From a bacterium (GTDB taxonomy: Bacteria; Verrucomicrobiota; Lentisphaeria; Victivallales; GWF2-38-69), in contig JAJXWI010000008.1 in assembly GCA_021781705.1 (NCBI GenBank), forward strand, positions 179-64,178: a stretch of 64,000 nt of DNA, written 5' to 3'. The notes under the pieces were generated by a model. That model ran no database searches and was not told the origin of the DNA. It saw nothing but the letters and a program-made list of their open reading frames with translations. Of the stretch, positions 8,586 through 64,000 are shown piece after piece. Both the position numbers and the translations under genes were made by a program. The stretch's first letter is position 1. Each line of letters starts with the position of its first letter.

Positions 8586-10304
8586 ATGAGAAGGATTGAG
8601 GACTGTGTTGGGAAAAAATCAGAAATATTGATTGCTACAGACCATGGCGGCTTGGAAATGAAAGGTTTTATCGTAAAAAAACTTTCTGAATCAGGATATA
8701 AAGTTATTGACCTGGGGCCGAAGGCATATGATGCGAATGATGACTATTGCGACTATGCTTCAATTCTTGCCGAAAAAATTTCAAAAGGAGAATCCGAACG
8801 AGGTATTTTGATATGCAGAAGTGGAATTGGAATGGCTATCAACGCCAACCGTTTTCACTATGTAAGAGCTTTTATTGCTTATGATGAAAATTTTGCAAAA
8901 GCCAGCAGAGAACATAACTGTTCAAATGTCCTTGTTCTTCCTGCTGACTATATAGACATGGAAAGTGCGGTAAGTATTACAAAAACCTGGTTGACTACTT
9001 CATTTACCGGTGAGTCCAGGCATTTAAGAAGACTGGAAAAGATAGAAAAGAAATCTTATGATGAAATAGCTGCGGTTCGTACTGTCGATCCTGAAATGGC
9101 TAAATACATTGATGAAGAGCTTGAGAGGCAGGAGGACGGGCTGGAATTGATTGCCTCTGAAAACTTTGCCAGTGCTGCGGTTAGGGCGGCGCAGGGAAGT
9201 ATCTTAACAAATAAATATGCAGAAGGGTATCCGGAAAAACGCTATTACAGCGGTTGTCAAGTTGTCGACAAAGTAGAAGCTATTGCAATAGAAAGGGCCT
9301 GTAAGATTTTTGGCGCGGAGGCCGCAAATGTTCAGCCGCATTCCGGAAGCCAGGCAAATATGGCCGCATACTTTGCGATAATCAAACCTGGAGATACTAT
9401 TCTAGCTATGGACTTGGCACATGGCGGGCACCTTACACATGGTCATCCGATGAACTTCAGCGGCATGTTGTACAATGTCGTTCATTATGGTGTTTCAAAG
9501 GAAACTGAAATGATCGATTATGATGTAATTGAAAAGCTCGCGCTTGAACATAAACCACAGGTAATTGTCGCCGGTGCCAGCGCCTACTCAAGAACAATTG
9601 ATTTTCCAAGGTTGAGAGTTATTGCGGATAAGGTTGGGGCTAAATTGATGGTTGATATGGCACATATAGCCGGTCTCGTGGCCGTCGGGCTGCATCCAAG
9701 CCCTGTTCCATATGCCGATATTGTAACAAGCACCACCCATAAATCTTTAAGAGGTCCTCGAGGCGGGCTGATTCTGTGTAAAGAACAATACATTAAAGAT
9801 ATAAATTCTAAGCTATTCCCTGGCATTCAGGGCGGTCCTTTACTTCATGTTATTGCTGCCAAAGGAGTATGCTTTCATGAAGCCATGACTCCGGAATTTA
9901 AGCAGTATCAGCAACAAGTAATTGTCAATGCAAAAAGACTCGCCTTAGAGCTTGAAAAATGCGGGTTCAGAATTGTTTCAGGCGGTACGGATAATCACCT
10001 GATGCTTGTTGATTTAAGACCTAAAAAAGCTACAGGAAAAGAAGTAGGTATAGCCTTGGAAAAAGCCGGAATAACCGTCAATAAGAACATGATCCCATTT
10101 GACCCCGAAAAACCATTTATTACAAGTGGCATAAGAATTGGGACTCCAGCAGTAACGGCTAGGGGCTTGAAAGAAGAGGATATGGTACTTGTGGCTAAAT
10201 GGATAGACAGAGCTGCCGCAAACCTTAACAATAATGCGGAACTCACGAAGATTTCTGCGGAAGTTAAAACGTTTATGGGTAAACATCCAATGCCAAGTTT
10301 CTGA
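8586..10304 (+). CDS. glyA: Fusion protein: ribose-5-phosphate isomerase B (RpiB/LacAB) + serine hydroxymethyltransferase
   Basis: The N-terminal ~150 aa has RpiB motifs ([37 protein letters not shown]). The remainder is canonical SHMT ([21 protein letters not shown]-lysine motif [14 protein letters not shown]). It is one uninterrupted 572-aa frame. Confidence 0.9.
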
Positions 10305-51285: not shown

Positions 51286-53397
51286 ATGTTGAACTCCTGC
51301 ATATTTCCCGGAAAAAGTGCTTTCTATAAAGCAAATATTTTGTTGTTGTTCTGTTTAATAGTCCTATCGGCGTACATGTTTCGAACTTATAATTTTACAA
51401 AAGAAGCGGCAAAGTTTCCTTCATTCGTCCCGTTTACCTTAGAAAGCGCAATGATGTATTCCTATTCGTGGGATGTGGCTAAGGGAACATTTCATGAACA
51501 CGATGAGACGCTTTCCGGTTTTAGCGGGGTTTCTGTTACTGAACAAATGTCTATGAGTTTAGAGTATTTTTTAGGATATGGGTATAAGATCAAAAATTAC
51601 TTGTTTGGCCATGGGGGTGACGGCCTGACTATTAACAATTTCGACTATGGAATAAATGAAAATTTTCCTGCTTGGGTAAGGTTTCAATTAAGGTTTTGGA
51701 TAAGCTTGACTGCCGGTCTTATTTTTATCTGGCTGCTTCTGCTCGATTGTCCCATTATCTATGCCAGCCTGGGAGGATTGTTGTTTGCCGTAACACCTGT
51801 AGCTATCGCCAGAGCTACCGGACAGGATATCATAAAGGAAAATTTTGCTATCCCTCTTATAATGTGTTGTTTTGTAGCGTATTTATGGTATCTAAAATGG
51901 CCAAAAAACTACAAACTCATATTACTTGTATGTGCTACAATATTGTCTCTTATAGCATGGGATATGACCCAGCTTTGCCTAGCTTTTTGGGTAGTTTATG
52001 AAATAATAGTGACTGTTTGTTTGGATAAGCAGGAAGAATGTTATCTTCCTGCCTGGATAACTATTTATGTTTCTACTGTTATCGCCGGAATTATTGATCC
52101 GTATTTAGCGGCGCATAATTTTTTACAATCTCCGGTAGTATCCGTCTTATTGCCCGTTCTTTTATTTGTAATTTTGTTTAGGCACAAACCTAGGATAGCA
52201 CGAATATTGGTAGCGGTTATATCCCTAATATTGTTTGTTTTTATATGGGCTGTTATTGTGAAAAATTTTGGATATGGAAATAATTATTCGCATTTCTGGA
52301 ACTTACTTTTGGCAAAAGTTAAATTTGGGAATGTAAAGCCGTTAGACCCCCTTTTACTGGATTTTGATTCAAGAATGCTTTGGACTCCCGCATTGCATTC
52401 TGCCACTATGAAAATTTTTCGTTCTCTATTTGGGCTTACATTTATATGTTTTGCTATTGTGGTTTTTCTGGGCTTTTCAGTAAGTGCTTTTAGAAAAAAA
52501 ATAGCTGCCCGATTGCAATGGATTGGCTTGCCTTTGTTTTTGACAAGCATGTTTTTTATTCTCTTTATTTTTATGGTCAGATTTCATGCCCTTGTAATCC
52601 CTTTTATGTGCGTTGCCATGGCAGTTTTCCTGAACAGAATTTCAGAGAAGATTACAAGACGGACGCTTCGAATATTGCTGGTAATATTATTTGCAGGCCT
52701 GGTTATGAATGAAGCATGCCGCGATCTTTGTTTTGAAAGGGAATATTACAGCGGCGAAAACGAGCAGCTGACTTTGATAAAAGAATTGAACAGCTCAGGT
52801 GTTAAGGGAGAAACTTTTCTGGCCGATTTTACTTTATCTCCAATGCTGAAAGCATATTGCGGCGCTAAAATTGTTTTAATTCCTAAATTCGAGATGAAAG
52901 AGGCTCGTGACAGGGTTGAAAAGTATGTCAATATTCTATATCACGGAACAGAGTTGGAATTTATGGAATTCTGCAAATCATACGGAGTCAAATATTTCAT
53001 TTTCGACAAAGGAATGATAGGCGGCCGCGACACTGAAGACTTTTTGCATCCATGGAGCATCAGATATATGGCCGCCGCTAACGTGTTAGAAAAAAACTCC
53101 CCTGTTTATAATTTTTTTTATTCTCCTGAGGTAATGGATTATTTTTATGAATTGGATGGGCAGGGTGTTTCAAGATATGTAATTTTTAAAATAATAACAC
53201 CTTCTGATATTTCTCAAAGTGAGAAACTATACCAACAGGCTCTCCTGGATTATAGGGCGGGAGATAAGACAAAAGCCAGGGATTTTACTGAGCAAGCCCT
53301 GCAATTAAACCCCAAAAATCCAAAAATCAGGTTCTTATCCTATACTATTAATGATGAGAAATGGCCTAAAATAACTTTCCCCGTACGCCGAAATTAA
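51286..53397 (+). CDS. Large polytopic membrane protein with C-terminal TPR segment (possible GT-C-type glycosyltransferase)
   Basis: 703 aa: about 12 or more TM segments, then a soluble domain ending in a TPR-like stretch (YQQALLDYRAGDKTKARDFTEQALQLNPKNP). It starts 8 nt after the rpoN stop. Confidence 0.5.
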   Translation: MLNSCIFPGKSAFYKANILLLFCLIVLSAYMFRTYNFTKEAAKFPSFVPFTLESAMMYSYSWDVAKGTFHEHDETLSGFSGVSVTEQMSMSLEYFLGYGYKIKNYLFGHGGDGLTINNFDYGINENFPAWVRFQLRFWISLTAGLIFIWLLLLDCPIIYASLGGLLFAVTPVAIARATGQDIIKENFAIPLIMCCFVAYLWYLKWPKNYKLILLVCATILSLIAWDMTQLCLAFWVVYEIIVTVCLDKQEECYLPAWITIYVSTVIAGIIDPYLAAHNFLQSPVVSVLLPVLLFVILFRHKPRIARILVAVISLILFVFIWAVIVKNFGYGNNYSHFWNLLLAKVKFGNVKPLDPLLLDFDSRMLWTPALHSATMKIFRSLFGLTFICFAIVVFLGFSVSAFRKKIAARLQWIGLPLFLTSMFFILFIFMVRFHALVIPFMCVAMAVFLNRISEKITRRTLRILLVILFAGLVMNEACRDLCFEREYYSGENEQLTLIKELNSSGVKGETFLADFTLSPMLKAYCGAKIVLIPKFEMKEARDRVEKYVNILYHGTELEFMEFCKSYGVKYFIFDKGMIGGRDTEDFLHPWSIRYMAAANVLEKNSPVYNFFYSPEVMDYFYELDGQGVSRYVIFKIITPSDISQSEKLYQQALLDYRAGDKTKARDFTEQALQLNPKNPKIRFLSYTINDEKWPKITFPVRRN

Positions 53398-57541: not shown

Positions 57542-59131
57542 TTATTTTTTCAAAGCATCCACTGACTGTAAAAATTCACGAACAACTTTTAGATTTTCAT
57601 CGCGTGCGTCCCATGCTGTTACGTGACCAGAGCCGGGAAACATTATATATTTTGAACCAGGAACTTTATCTGCCAACTTTTTAACAATTGAAGGAGCTAT
57701 TGCATCAAATTCTCCCACGGTAAACAGTGTTGGAACTTTAATTTGCGGGAGGAATGACAGAGGATCATAGTCCTTAAGAGTACCGGTTACAGTAAATTCA
57801 CTTTGCCCCCACATATAGGCAGCCATATCTGCATTAAATGTCGCATATATGCTATCTAAGTCCTCCTTAACGGGGTGACGCCAAATATATAAACTGTAGA
57901 ATTTGTCCATCGCTTTTTTATACATCGGATCATTGTAATTATTAGTTAATTCAGCCGTTTTGACAGCCTCCTGAAGCGAATCAGGCAAGGTAGCGAGTAG
58001 TTTTCTAGTACTTTGCACCCACCCTTTCACATCGAAACACAAACTGCCAAAAATTAATGAAGATACTCGTTCCGGGTAAGCGCGATAATATTCAAGAGCA
58101 ATAATTGTTCCCCAGGAATGGCCCAACACATGCCATTTTTCAATGCCTAAATGGGCTCGGAGCAACTCGAGTTCTTTTACAAAACGATCAATAGTGAACA
58201 ACGTCTTGTCTGTTATTTTGTCAGATTTTCCACCGCCCAGCTGGTCATAACGCACAACTTGCCGATCATTACCAAGTTCATCGAATACTTTTAAGCCTAG
58301 ACTCGACATGCCGGGACCGCCGTGAAGCATTACAACTGGCAACCCCTTTCCTGTGCCAGATATCTTGTACCATATGTTACCTCCGGGAACTGCAAGTCTG
58401 GATTCCCCAACTGGCATAGGCGAATTTGCATTCTTTTTTTCCATTGCAGGTTTTACTACAAACTCTTGAAATTCCTTATCATAATATAAACGTTTTATAT
58501 CTTCCATCCTGTCTAGATACAGAACTCCATCCAAGTGATCTACTTCATGCTGAATTACTTTTGCATGAAAATCACTAACTTCACGAGTAATTGTTTTTCC
58601 TTCTAGGGTTTTATAGCTGTATTTAATACGCTTATACCTGGGAACTTCTCCAACCAGTCCTGGAAGAGAAAGGCACCCCTCCCACCCAGGCACTTTTTCT
58701 ACACCAAGTGGTTCTATCGCTGGATTTATAACCACAGTGAAAGGTACTGATTTCTGTGATTCATCAGCCTTTTGTTCCGGTATTTGAAACAGCAGAATCC
58801 GTAATGGAATATTTACCTGCGGAGCTGCCAGTCCCGCCACATTTTCCTTCCCCATTTTATCGATAGTCGCCATCATATCGGCAACAATCTGGCGAGTTTC
58901 CAATGATGTGGGATCAGCAACTTCTTTTGCTTTTTGCCTTAATACCGTGTGGCCCATGCGAACAATTTCTAACGGCTTGCCAATTATTCCGTCAGGTGTT
59001 GATGATTCTTTTGCAAGTAAATCTGCCATATTTAGTAAAACTCCAATTAATAGTATTATACTTTGAGTAAACAAGTTACGCAAATAAATATTCTTATTTT
59101 TCCATTTATCTTTATCATTATTGATATTCAT
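57542..59131 (-). CDS. def: Fusion: N-terminal hydrophobic anchor + peptide deformylase + proline iminopeptidase (S33 alpha/beta hydrolase)
   Basis: 529 aa. PDF motifs GLAAPQV, EGCLSLPG and HEVDHLDG. Then the S33 signatures HGGPG and nucleophile elbow GHSWG, with distal GEFD and GSGH. Confidence 0.85.
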   Translation of the reverse strand: MNINNDKDKWKNKNIYLRNLFTQSIILLIGVLLNMADLLAKESSTPDGIIGKPLEIVRMGHTVLRQKAKEVADPTSLETRQIVADMMATIDKMGKENVAGLAAPQVNIPLRILLFQIPEQKADESQKSVPFTVVINPAIEPLGVEKVPGWEGCLSLPGLVGEVPRYKRIKYSYKTLEGKTITREVSDFHAKVIQHEVDHLDGVLYLDRMEDIKRLYYDKEFQEFVVKPAMEKKNANSPMPVGESRLAVPGGNIWYKISGTGKGLPVVMLHGGPGMSSLGLKVFDELGNDRQVVRYDQLGGGKSDKITDKTLFTIDRFVKELELLRAHLGIEKWHVLGHSWGTIIALEYYRAYPERVSSLIFGSLCFDVKGWVQSTRKLLATLPDSLQEAVKTAELTNNYNDPMYKKAMDKFYSLYIWRHPVKEDLDSIYATFNADMAAYMWGQSEFTVTGTLKDYDPLSFLPQIKVPTLFTVGEFDAIAPSIVKKLADKVPGSKYIMFPGSGHVTAWDARDENLKVVREFLQSVDALKK

Positions 59132-60348: not shown

Positions 60349-61205
60349 TCAGGCTTTATTTTCTGCGGTTGTGTTCCTTATATTTTTCTCTATGAATTTT
60401 CTCCATGTAAATTGGGGGTTCCATTTAAACGCATCTTTAACTCTATGACAGTCAAGTAATGATCCATATAGGTTATCCTCAATTCTCTTTTCTTTTTTCC
60501 ATTTCACTTGCGGGTGTATTTTTTGAGTGAGTTCAAGGCTTGTGTTTCCAGAGGTTGTAATATCATCCGATGAAACCAGGTAGCAATCGTATCCTATAAA
60601 ATCAGTTTTAATGCACTTTATAACAAGTTTCGCAAGATCTCTTACATCAATGAAAGCTCCACCCATTCATATTCAGGCCTTATTTTTCTTGACTCTATAA
60701 TGTCGAAATAGGTTTTTTCATTCCAAACACCGGGCGGTCTAAGGCAGATGGTTGAAATATGATTGGTTTGCCTGAAAGAATAACACATTTCTTCTGCAAG
60801 CTTTTTAGATATTGCGTATGGGTTTGCTGGTCTGCAAGGATGGTCATCGTTAATTGGAAAGTAATCGGGGATGCCTTCCCCCTTGAATATCCCGAGCGCG
60901 TCAACACTGCTCATAAATATGACTTTGCGAAATGCATTTATTCTCGCAGACTCCAAAACATTCCATGTACCTAAAAGATTCGTTCTTGTTATTTCTTCCC
61001 CGTTTTCTCTTTCGTCATTACCAAGAAGCGCCGCCAGATGCACGACCGACTCACAGCCTATTCCAGCTTTTATTACATTGGATGTATTTCGAATATCGCT
61101 ACCTTCCGTCAAGTCATATCCAACTATTTCATGCCCATCTGTTCGAAGTTGCTTTTCAACAACTTGGCCAATCAGCCCACTATTTCCTGTTAATAGAATT
61201 TTCAT
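60349..61205 (-). pseudogene. NAD-dependent epimerase/dehydratase gene disrupted by a frameshift
   Basis: The N-terminal 187-aa ORF (60642-61205; MKILLTGNSGLIGQ, YAISK) and the C-terminal 105-aa ORF (60349-60666) lie in different frames and overlap by 25 nt. Together they make one ~285-aa SDR. Confidence 0.65.
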
Positions 61206-62295: not shown

Positions 62296-63192
62296 TTAAA
62301 GTCTTGCGTAAATACTGGATTCACTGCCTATCCAGTATTTTTCAAGATATTCGTTTGTTTTATTTGGTCTATTTGCTGAAATCCAATTCTCATATTCAGG
62401 CTTGTCCCCTACGAAATATAGGGTTCCTGTGGATGCGGCTATTGGTTGCCAAATGTGCTTATCATCCACTATTGGTCTAACCCCAATGACAAATATTTTT
62501 TCTGCAATTCTAACTTTCTCCGACCATTCATTCTGAAAGTTCTTGATTACGTCAGGTGCTATAGCTAATGGTTTGTCTTTGGCATATAAACACATTGAGG
62601 GATACAATGCGGTATTGCTTCTGTATATCGTTGAAACATCTACAGGGTTTACAAACTCTATATTTCCACCAAAACTTGCCCTGTGCCCAAATGAAACACT
62701 GCGAGTTACGTCCGCTCCTCCTTGTAGTTTAAAATTACATGAACCATGTATTTTCCAGATTTTTGCATTATCATTCTCAGCCTTACCGAAATATTCAACC
62801 GTTATGCCTTCCAATGATGCGGCAAATTCGCATAAGCATTCGTAATTTAATGTTGATATAATAGTGTTTTTTAATAAGTTTTTTGATTTCAAATTTCTAA
62901 ACAAATTTTTGTATAAGTTATCATTATTGTTAGTTAGGCCAAACCTTGAAAAAAAAATTGCCATTTGCTGCATTAATGGAGGAATAGCATGACTATTAGT
63001 TTCAATTAGTTCAGCCATTCCATTCTCAAAATTGGTATTGAATTTTGATTGCAAGTTTGAATCGAAACTTCCCCAAGTTATTGGGTAAATTCTTTTTAAA
63101 GCAGAATATAGGTCGCTACCTAATGGTGGAGGGCATGGATCTACCTGTCCTGACCCAAATGATGCACCTGCTCCAAATAGGAATAAATTCAT
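62296..63192 (-). CDS. Stand-alone SIR2-like (SIR2_2 / defence-type) protein
   Basis: 298 aa. Ordered motifs: FLFGAGASFGSG (aa 4-15), TLNYE (114-118, with N116 at the Asn position), KIHGS (147-151, with H149 at the catalytic-His position) and IFVIGVRPIVDD. No other domain was recognised. Confidence 0.65.
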   Translation of the reverse strand: MNLFLFGAGASFGSGQVDPCPPPLGSDLYSALKRIYPITWGSFDSNLQSKFNTNFENGMAELIETNSHAIPPLMQQMAIFFSRFGLTNNNDNLYKNLFRNLKSKNLLKNTIISTLNYECLCEFAASLEGITVEYFGKAENDNAKIWKIHGSCNFKLQGGADVTRSVSFGHRASFGGNIEFVNPVDVSTIYRSNTALYPSMCLYAKDKPLAIAPDVIKNFQNEWSEKVRIAEKIFVIGVRPIVDDKHIWQPIAASTGTLYFVGDKPEYENWISANRPNKTNEYLEKYWIGSESSIYARL

Positions 63193-63434
63193 AGTAGTCC
63201 GAGTCTCATTGCATTGAACGATAAACTATAGTAACACTTTTCACAATAAACAATTGCCATAGGGAAAACTTGTCCCTCGATAACCATTTTATATTGAGTG
63301 TCAAACATTGAATAAACGGCTAATTCTTTTTCAATAGCCCACCTGTTACCGCCACAAACAGGACATTTGTTATATTGTAAATAATTTGAAAGATGATTTT
63401 TAATTTTTGTCTGTTGGTCGTTTGTTAGTGGCAT
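63189..63434 (-). CDS. Small four-Cys zinc-ribbon protein, translationally coupled to the SIR2-like gene
   Basis: 81 aa. CPVC (C24, C27) ... CEKC (C64, C67). Its stop overlaps the SIR2-like start by 4 nt (ATGA). Confidence 0.6.
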   Translation of the reverse strand: MPLTNDQQTKIKNHLSNYLQYNKCPVCGGNRWAIEKELAVYSMFDTQYKMVIEGQVFPMAIVYCEKCYYSLSFNAMRLGLL

Positions 63435-63591
63435 GATTATTTGTTTTTAAATAGCTTGTAACAATTTCTAATTCCCAAATTTTTTGGTAGTGTAAAATCT
63501 TTTCTGTAAATTCAAAATTTGAATAGAGGTGCAAATGATCATCCTATAAATTTAAAATCCCTTTAAAAAATTAAAAGAAAGGAAAGATCAA

Positions 63592-64000
63592 ATGCCTAAC
63601 AGTAAAAGTATACGTATGGAAGAAATTTTCAACAAGTTAATGGAAGCTGGCTACGAAAACGTTATGCCGCAAATCACATCAATATTGTTAAATGGAGTAA
63701 TGGAATTAGAACGAGAGAAATACCTAAAGGCTGAAGCATACGCAAGGAATCCTGAGCGAATAAGTTACGCTAATGGCTACAAGGACAAAAAGCTTGGTAT
63801 GCGGATGGGAGAAGTGCAATTAAAAATACCACAGACCAGAGACTGCATTTTTTATCCTCGAACAGTAAAAAGGGAGTTCGCTCTGAAAAAGCATTGAGGC
63901 TGGCGTTGTCGGAGATGTATATACAGGGAGTGTCAACCCTGAAAGTTATGAAGATAACCGAGCAATTATGTGGATTTGAAGTTTCATCGACACAAATATC
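63592..64000 (+). mobile_element. IS256-family (Mutator-type) transposase gene, frameshifted and truncated by the window end
   Basis: The N-terminus ...LKAEAYARNPERISYANGYKDKKLGMRMGEVQLKIPQTRD..FYP is typical of IS256 transposases. The frame breaks at the A5 run 63867-63871. The family continues in another frame as KKGVRSEKALRLALSEMYIQGVSTLKVMKITEQLCGFEVSSTQI. A possible left end lies near GGTAGTGTAAAATC (~63487). Confidence 0.8.

Follow-up and report, generated by a model that had tools for sequence, protein, structure and literature searches.

The window analysed here, a stretch of 64,000 nucleotides (nt) of contig JAJXWI010000008.1 from a bacterium of the class Lentisphaeria, carries near its right end a two-gene operon on the minus strand. 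The first gene encodes a small zinc-ribbon protein (ZnR) and the second a SIR2-like protein. The two open reading frames (ORFs) overlap by an ATGA, just as the first-pass annotation of this DNA had described, and both are intact, with every residue that is invariant in their families. We show below that the two genes are inherited together and diverge in step, and propose that the pair may serve as a mobile conflict module. NADases of the SIR2 type rank among the most common effectors in bacterial immunity, with eukaryotic descendants in FAM118 and SIRanc. To our knowledge, every characterised SIR2 immune system is controlled by a large sensor module. The features of the operon are as follows (aa, amino acids; AF2, AlphaFold2):

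63189..63434, minus strand: ZnR gene, 81 aa, four-cysteine zinc ribbon (ORF, AF2 model and family conservation)
62296..63192, minus strand: SIR2 gene, 298 aa, stand-alone protein of the SIR2_2 or 'SIRim' type (ORF, AF2 model and Foldseek)
63189..63192, minus strand: ATGA start/stop overlap of the ZnR and SIR2 genes, translational coupling
63435..63591, minus strand: intergenic region 5′ of ZnR, 157 nt, which must contain the operon promoter

A promoter scan of the 157-nt upstream region gave a single sigma-70-like match at 63464..63436, agreeing at 9 of 12 positions; the signal is weak, promoter-like sites in this region being in no excess over shuffled sequence. No GC anomaly was seen at the cassette, and an Rfam scan of the window returned no match.

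The SIR2 protein and its relatives

The motifs that had been quoted for the 298-residue protein, FLFGAGASFGSG (residues 4–15), TLNYE (N116), KIHGS (H149) and IFVIGVRP..D (233–244), are all present, and they are invariant or nearly so in the homologues, hence not due to chance. The GAGAS NAD loop corresponds to residues 7–11 and the GVRPxxxDxH motif to residues 237–246. Among 57 homologues, down to 33% identity, G7, A8, G9, A10, N116, Y117, K147, H149, G150, S151, D244 and H246 are invariant, and these residues stay at least 93% conserved once the distant clades and the viral copies are added; S11 is at least 90% conserved. The only conserved cysteines of the family are C119 and C152, and no CxxC...CxxC, the 4-Cys zinc module of sirtuins, follows H149 in the 298-residue protein. 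The protein is a single domain, as proposed at first sight, and its sole Pfam signal is a sub-threshold match to SIR2_2.

The AF2 model built from the family alignment has a pLDDT of 96.5 and a pTM of 0.93. Foldseek returned 59 matches in the PDB at E ≤ 1e-3, and the best 50 listed are all SIR2-family chains. The top 29 PDB matches are defence SIR2s, namely SIR2-HerA/Nezha, PsSIR2 and Avs5. The SIR2 subunits of SIR2-HerA/Nezha rank first, with E of 3e-9 to 1e-6, followed by the Avs5 SIR2-STAND protein, and DSR2 and the canonical sirtuins SIRT3, CobB and Hst2 are weaker (E ≥ 3e-5). When the family profile is compared with PDB sequences, STLNYE pairs with TTNYD of PsSIR2, and WKIHGS with its WKLHGS. 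Counted through this alignment, N116, E118 and H149 correspond to N163, D165 and H212 of PsSIR2, which are its putative catalytic residues (PMC11472057). Lack of the 4-Cys module is typical of SIR2_2/SIRim proteins (PMC12700824, PMC11472057), and in the literature this branch holds all known antiphage SIR2s. Because of the fold matches, the PsSIR2 alignment and the missing 4-Cys module, the assignment of the 298-residue protein to the SIR2 fold is supported, with the GAGxS loop in place and N116, E118 and H149 as putative catalytic residues at characterised positions. The earlier reading of this protein thus withstood both the profile and the structure comparisons. The family forms a divergent, uncurated branch of SIR2_2; 28 of 57 relatives reach the Pfam SIR2_2 profile at E < 0.01.

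With a word-indexed search we recovered 228 proteins of ~300 aa, nearly all annotated 'hypothetical'. A profile search over 1.84 billion representatives gave 739 clusters (50% identity) at E ≤ 1e-30, again nearly all ~300 aa and single-domain. The family spans more than 10 bacterial phyla and the archaea, and its distribution is incongruent with taxonomy. The outer clades, with 28–36% identity to the window protein, are all solo, including 17 of 17 viral loci from IMG/VR.

SIR2-HerA (PDB 8sub, 8uae, 8j4u, 8wld and 8w9l) is the best structural match, at E of 3e-9 to 1e-7, and also the best profile match. The catalytic Asn, acidic residue and His are aligned, and neither protein has the sirtuin zinc module. 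However, the SIR2 protein of SIR2-HerA has 381–428 aa against 298 aa here (~80–100 aa shorter), the identity is 13–15%, and the partner there is the HerA ATPase, not an 81-residue zinc ribbon. No HerA is present in the window or among the 25 most frequent families listed for 149 proteins neighbouring the pair and its close relatives. ThsA, DSR1/DSR2, Avs5 and SPARSA belong to the same SIR2_2/SIRim subfamily, with Avs5 (9jap) and DSR2 (8k9a) among the Foldseek matches. Their SIR2s are NAD+-depleting defence effectors combined with SLOG, an alpha-solenoid C-terminal domain, a STAND NTPase or APAZ/pAgo, whereas the SIR2 here is domain-sized and its partner only a tiny zinc ribbon. Of the marks of Thoeris, the 298-residue protein has no SLOG or Macro domain and no conserved TIR neighbour; nor was there a large C-terminal sensor, a STAND NTPase or an APAZ and pAgo neighbour of the kind known from DSR1/DSR2, Avs5 and SPARSA. 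None of the partners that define SIR2-HerA, Thoeris, DSR, Avs5 and SPARSA accompanies the SIR2 here.

By architecture alone, the pair can also be compared with FAM118B/FAM118A. FAM118B and FAM118A are vertebrate stand-alone SIR2_2 proteins with no zinc module, whose activity needs filament assembly and a partner protein (PMC12700824). They resemble the window protein in being domain-sized and in lacking the module, but they are eukaryotic and the partner is a paralogous sirtuin, not a zinc ribbon.

Canonical sirtuins (CobB, Sir2Af1, SIRT3) share with the window protein the Rossmann-type SIR2 fold, the GAGxS loop and the catalytic Asn and His, and they differ in having an integral 4-Cys zinc module and in matching at E of 3e-5 and worse. 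Canonical sirtuins require this module (PMC11472057, PMC12700824). The SIR2 protein could be read as a non-immune NAD-dependent deacylase or ADP-ribosyltransferase, with ZnR as its substrate or as a specificity or zinc-module subunit supplied in trans. The sirtuin-like fold, with canonical sirtuins among the significant matches, agrees with such a protein-modifying enzyme, as does the presence of a separate 4-Cys protein beside a SIR2 that lacks the module. SirTM offers a parallel, since its target is the small GcvH-L protein, a product of its own operon. GNAT-type acetyltransferases also neighbour 5 of the 24 loci, and in the window one lies immediately downstream of the pair. Nevertheless, the E-values of the defence SIR2s are 4–5 orders of magnitude better than those of the sirtuins. 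Neither the GNAT nor the NUDIX gene of the window has a homologue near any other locus of the family, and there is neither a conserved third gene nor a conserved acetyltransferase. The distribution, patchy across phyla, suggestive of horizontal transfer and in part borne by prophages, is unlike that of a housekeeping regulator; a canonical sirtuin deacylase of the CobB type would be expected to be vertically inherited and to have an integral zinc ribbon. We regard a protein-modifying role as quite unlikely.

Pairing with the zinc-ribbon protein

The CPVC...CEKC of the 81-residue protein, taken for a zinc ribbon at first reading, is present, and its cysteines are conserved in 64 partner sequences. 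The zinc ligands are C24, C27, C64 and C67; the first two are invariant and the last two occur in 63 of the 64. In the AF2 model (pLDDT 93.1) an N-terminal helix (residues 5–18) is combined with four beta-strands and two CxxC knuckles. Conserved positions other than the ligands are G28, W32, D45, P58, F73 and G79. Direct search with the 81-residue sequence found five close relatives only; the profile search gave a family of 84 small proteins of 53–118 aa, none with a Pfam domain, and the window ZnR has a sub-threshold Lar-like match in Pfam. The ZnR family is near-neutral, with a median pI of 6.2 and a core net charge of about +1, which weakly favours protein binding over nucleic-acid binding. 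Fold comparison gave only non-significant matches, in the PDB to the N-terminal zinc domain of MqsA (3ga8, top, E 0.22, TM ~0.35), NrdR, Rpp21 and RPA12, and among viral structures to TFIIS-like proteins.

Six-frame translations of 53 genome loci were searched with the ZnR HMM. ZnR was found in 22 of them, 8 times directly upstream of SIR2 and 14 times directly downstream. The junctions between the two genes range from −23 to +15 nt in the genome loci, and from −23 to +19 nt with the metagenome loci, both orders included. In all-vs-all clustering of the neighbour ORFs, ZnR is the sole recurrent neighbour of SIR2. This clustering ruled out a third component, as it holds no conserved gene besides ZnR. 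The pair was also present in L076–78, L080–81, L104 and L107, which were retrieved by protein identity. In the original gene calls ZnR was often overlooked or the SIR2 start placed late.

The test was also made in reverse. A metagenome collection was scanned with the downstream-type ZnR subgroup alone, since the whole ZnR alignment was too divergent to serve as the query. The scan gave 22 loci, and SIR2 lies directly upstream of ZnR in 20 of the 20 testable ones, the two genes being −20 to +19 nt apart; the two others end at a contig boundary and were excluded. The downstream-type ZnRs have two extra conserved cysteines, at the equivalents of window residues 19 and 26 (KCGxMRCxCCG, six in all), and their C-terminal tail is acidic and rich in Pro. 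The window ZnR, which is of the upstream type, has neither the extra pair nor such a tail.

In a neighbour-joining tree of SIR2, the 22 ZnR-linked loci and the window form one clade, within which gene order follows the subclades. Pairwise distances of SIR2 and ZnR correlate with r=0.78 in a mirror-tree comparison, a value that 0 of 5000 Mantel permutations reached. SIR2 and ZnR are thus inherited together and diverge in step; taken alone, this is linkage and no proof of physical contact. A search for a ZnR interface among the clade-specific positions of SIR2 gave scattered, uninformative residues. The first-pass annotation had proposed to test whether ZnR is a conserved upstream neighbour. Tight coupling was indeed found, but it is confined to one SIR2 clade, ZnR may stand upstream or downstream, and it has secondarily been lost.

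The losses are informative. L079 is solo and nested among upstream-type pairs, and L105 and L106, also solo, group with L004 and L006 inside the ZnR clade. These solo SIR2s keep the invariant catalytic residues. Because the outer clades are solo, and L079 and the group of L004, L006, L105 and L106 are solo within the clade, we conclude that ZnR was gained once by a stand-alone SIR2 lineage, rearranged, and lost at least 2 times.

The pattern bears on a type II toxin-antitoxin (TA) interpretation, according to which SIR2 is a constitutive NAD+-degrading toxin and ZnR a labile antitoxin that binds it. The two genes are small, overlapping and co-inherited, with the close junctions and distance correlation given above, their order flips between clades, and some loci have surroundings rich in mobile elements and TA genes. 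RES-Xre, MbcT-MbcA and MqsR-MqsA are two-gene modules of comparable form. RES toxins degrade NAD+, as in RES-Xre and MbcT-MbcA, and the zinc-binding N-domain of MqsA, the top PDB fold match of ZnR, binds the toxin MqsR. However, the MqsA match is non-significant, the RES fold is unrelated to SIR2, and ZnR has neither a helix-turn-helix nor any other DNA-binding domain for autoregulation. A toxin that can not be maintained without its antitoxin is not what the tree contains: SIR2 outlives the loss of ZnR with its catalytic residues all kept, and the solo outer clades, prophage copies included, indicate that the enzyme is tolerated without a partner. The loss pattern argues against an indispensable antitoxin, and agrees with ZnR as an accessory subunit, for regulation or sensing, of a self-restrained enzyme. 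A TA function of the pair is unlikely.

Separately, long homologues were examined as natural SIR2-ZnR fusions and rejected, being N-terminal over-calls. P0247 (426 aa) and P0280 (432 aa) do have a fused C-terminal extension of ~120 aa with four CxxC, a double zinc ribbon. Against the partner ZnR these ribbons gave hhalign probabilities of 11% and 56%, and they count only as an analogous association. In the metagenome locus L083 (1594–2514), the SIR2 gene has a single in-frame stop at 2209–2211 and the downstream ZnR is intact; the stop could reflect a nonsense mutation, an error of sequencing or a recoded codon.

A candidate conflict module

At a probability of about one half, we consider the pair to be a mobile two-gene conflict module, in which a self-restrained SIRim NADase effector is combined with a co-translated ZnR as its dedicated protein-binding gate or sensor. 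Its most likely role is anti-phage defence by abortive infection. In favour of this reading are the SIR2 fold and the alignment of the catalytic residues, the exclusive, co-diverging pairing in both gene orders, the patchy distribution over phyla, mobile-element and TA or restriction-modification neighbours at some loci, and the prophages that carry sister clades. The stand-alone SIR2_2/SIRim enzyme would consume NAD+ by means of the GAGAS loop, N116, E118 and H149, and by analogy with other defence SIR2s it would be held inactive until triggered. ZnR would bind in a complex as a subunit dedicated to SIR2 and would gate or trigger it, as a sensor or a regulator, without being an indispensable antidote.

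Can the pair be assigned to a described system? PADLOC SIR2 models match the window protein at E ~5e-4 and NCBIfam gave no match. The Aga_SIR2 model of PADLOC is weak, hitting 5 of 57 family members at E ≥ 6e-5, and PADLOC v2.0.0 has no match to ZnR. A full-text search of the literature found no named system coupling SIR2 to a small zinc-ribbon protein. The first-pass annotation could not match the architecture to a named system, and no PADLOC, Pfam or NCBIfam model covers the pair. On sequence and model comparisons, the pair probably represents a variant of the NAD-depleting anti-phage SIR2 systems that has yet to be described.

A wider proposal is put forward more tentatively, at somewhat less than even odds. 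The pair may be a minimal two-component SIR2 immune system, in which a zinc ribbon of ~80–100 aa is the sole sensor or gate of a SIRim NADase, and the whole ~300-aa family may be an unrecognised branch of NAD+-depletion immunity among environmental bacteria and archaea. The conserved beta-hairpin and the zinc knuckles of ZnR might dock at the site of the sirtuin-type zinc module or at the substrate cleft, and such docking would control access to the active site or oligomerisation. If the pair works as a system, a domain-sized SIR2 with an ~80-aa zinc ribbon would be the smallest known arrangement and a tractable model for the gating of SIR2 effectors, and an unannotated family, with its 739 clusters across bacteria, archaea and prophages, would join the defence repertoire. 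The clade structure, with its solo ancestors, ZnR gain, order flips and losses, provides a natural experiment on the contribution of the partner. The effector class is well known; what recommends the pair for experiment is its minimal architecture, the exclusiveness of its partner and the large unannotated family behind it.

Several observations weigh against a defence module. The window protein scores 15.4 bits against Pfam SIR2_2 (PF13289), below the gathering threshold of 24.5 (E 0.021). PADLOC v2.0.0 gives the family only weak matches, to generic SIR2, pAgo-associated SIR2 and PDC-S25, the best at E ~1e-5. ZnR folds as a generic zinc ribbon and matches no specific protein significantly, so the choice between a sensor and an inhibitor is a guess. 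L078 and L105 have ordinary housekeeping surroundings. A plasmid search found one copy, solo and haloarchaeal. The ZnR-linked clade was not found on viral contigs, and neither protein matched deposited phages.

The last of these points also counts against another explanation, that the genes are cargo serving a phage or other mobile element, for example as a counter-defence or host-takeover enzyme that processes NAD. Such cargo would agree with the sister clades found in prophages. The viral contigs L059–L075 are real phages or prophages with terminase, portal, capsid, tape-measure and endolysin genes, and their SIR2 is solo. In L067, L069 and L075 it has lysis genes on one side and the small and large terminase genes on the other, and DNA methyltransferases are frequent neighbours of the solo viral copies. 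One of these copies is:

L069, 7896–8918: solo outer-clade SIR2 in a viral contig

However, accessory positions of this kind in prophages commonly hold defence genes, and the closest structural relatives of the protein are host defence effectors. A service to the phage is very unlikely.

Genomic surroundings of the pair

The gene order of the window is common to 12 contigs that carry the identical protein:

genes 1–3: IS256-family transposase fragment, ZnR, SIR2
genes 4–6: GNAT, NUDIX, split epimerase
genes 7–9: cupin, GrpB, deformylase-hydrolase fusion

The run of accessory genes noted earlier (GNAT, NUDIX, split epimerase, cupin and GrpB) is thus real. The IS256-family (PF00872) transposase ORF starts at 63592 on the plus strand, 157 nt from the ZnR start codon. 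It is degraded; an ORF of 101 aa is followed by stops within 63592–64000 (plus strand). On the longer contig of L056, positions 36–1481 hold a second IS256 fragment of 167 aa and an ISL3 remnant. The cassette had been placed about 50 nt from the left end of an IS256 element. The transposase is there, and with a candidate end of the insertion sequence (IS) at 63486–63513, single-copy in the window, the distance is plausible, but no terminal inverted repeats of the element were found.

The decayed surroundings, with a fragmented transposase and a split epimerase, might suggest that the pair is an incidental IS256 passenger or a functionless, decaying remnant. This is the least credible of the explanations, an extremely unlikely one, for both ORFs are intact with all family-invariant residues, IS256 is missing from nearly all other loci, L107 excepted, and the pair is strongly conserved across phyla. 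The IS256, GNAT and NUDIX neighbours are specific to the window and lie outside the module.

Mobile and defence-related genes accompany the pair in some other loci. The census of the 149 neighbour proteins, drawn from 24 ZnR-clade loci and made with Pfam and PADLOC, gave AbiEii 3, AbiEi 2, type I restriction-modification methylases 2, YhcG/PDC-S02 2, Eco57I-like 2 and GNATs 5, raw counts that carry no claim of enrichment. For SIRim proteins, a 12-fold enrichment near defence systems has been reported. The closest annotated relative is in a Cyclobacteriaceae metagenome-assembled genome (MAG; L076, 5627–13590), with a SIR2 74% identical to that of the window in an integrase-bounded islet. Two GNAT genes are upstream, and an OLD-family nuclease (AAA_15/AAA_21 with TOPRIM) is 175 nt downstream. 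The ZnR gene of this locus, within 9738–10001, is uncalled in the depositor's annotation. L079 has ImmA/DUF4411 and CHAT-TPR genes as neighbours, and resolvases flank L080. In L107 (1–16906, the P0104 locus) the pair lies between two IS256-family transposase genes and three rve-type integrase genes with an HNH gene, and this IS-dense region may be a composite transposon. Defence genes and mobile elements, which the first reading had suggested looking for beside the pair, are present in a subset of the loci, but this context is moderate and patchy. The context is compatible with accessory, mobile, conflict-related cargo.

Three further genes of the window deserve mention. The gene of the NAD-dependent epimerase family at 60349–61205 (minus strand) is split into ORFs of 187 aa (60642–61205) and 105 aa (60349–60666), which overlap by 25 nt in different frames, and is probably a frameshifted pseudogene. 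At 57542–59131 (minus strand) a protein of 529 aa fuses a peptide deformylase to an alpha/beta-hydrolase behind a hydrophobic N-terminus, an unusual architecture. Dpy19 is mainly a eukaryotic family of C-mannosyltransferases, and the 703-aa protein encoded at 51286–53397 (plus strand), which matches Pfam Dpy19 (PF10034), is an odd find in a bacterial MAG.

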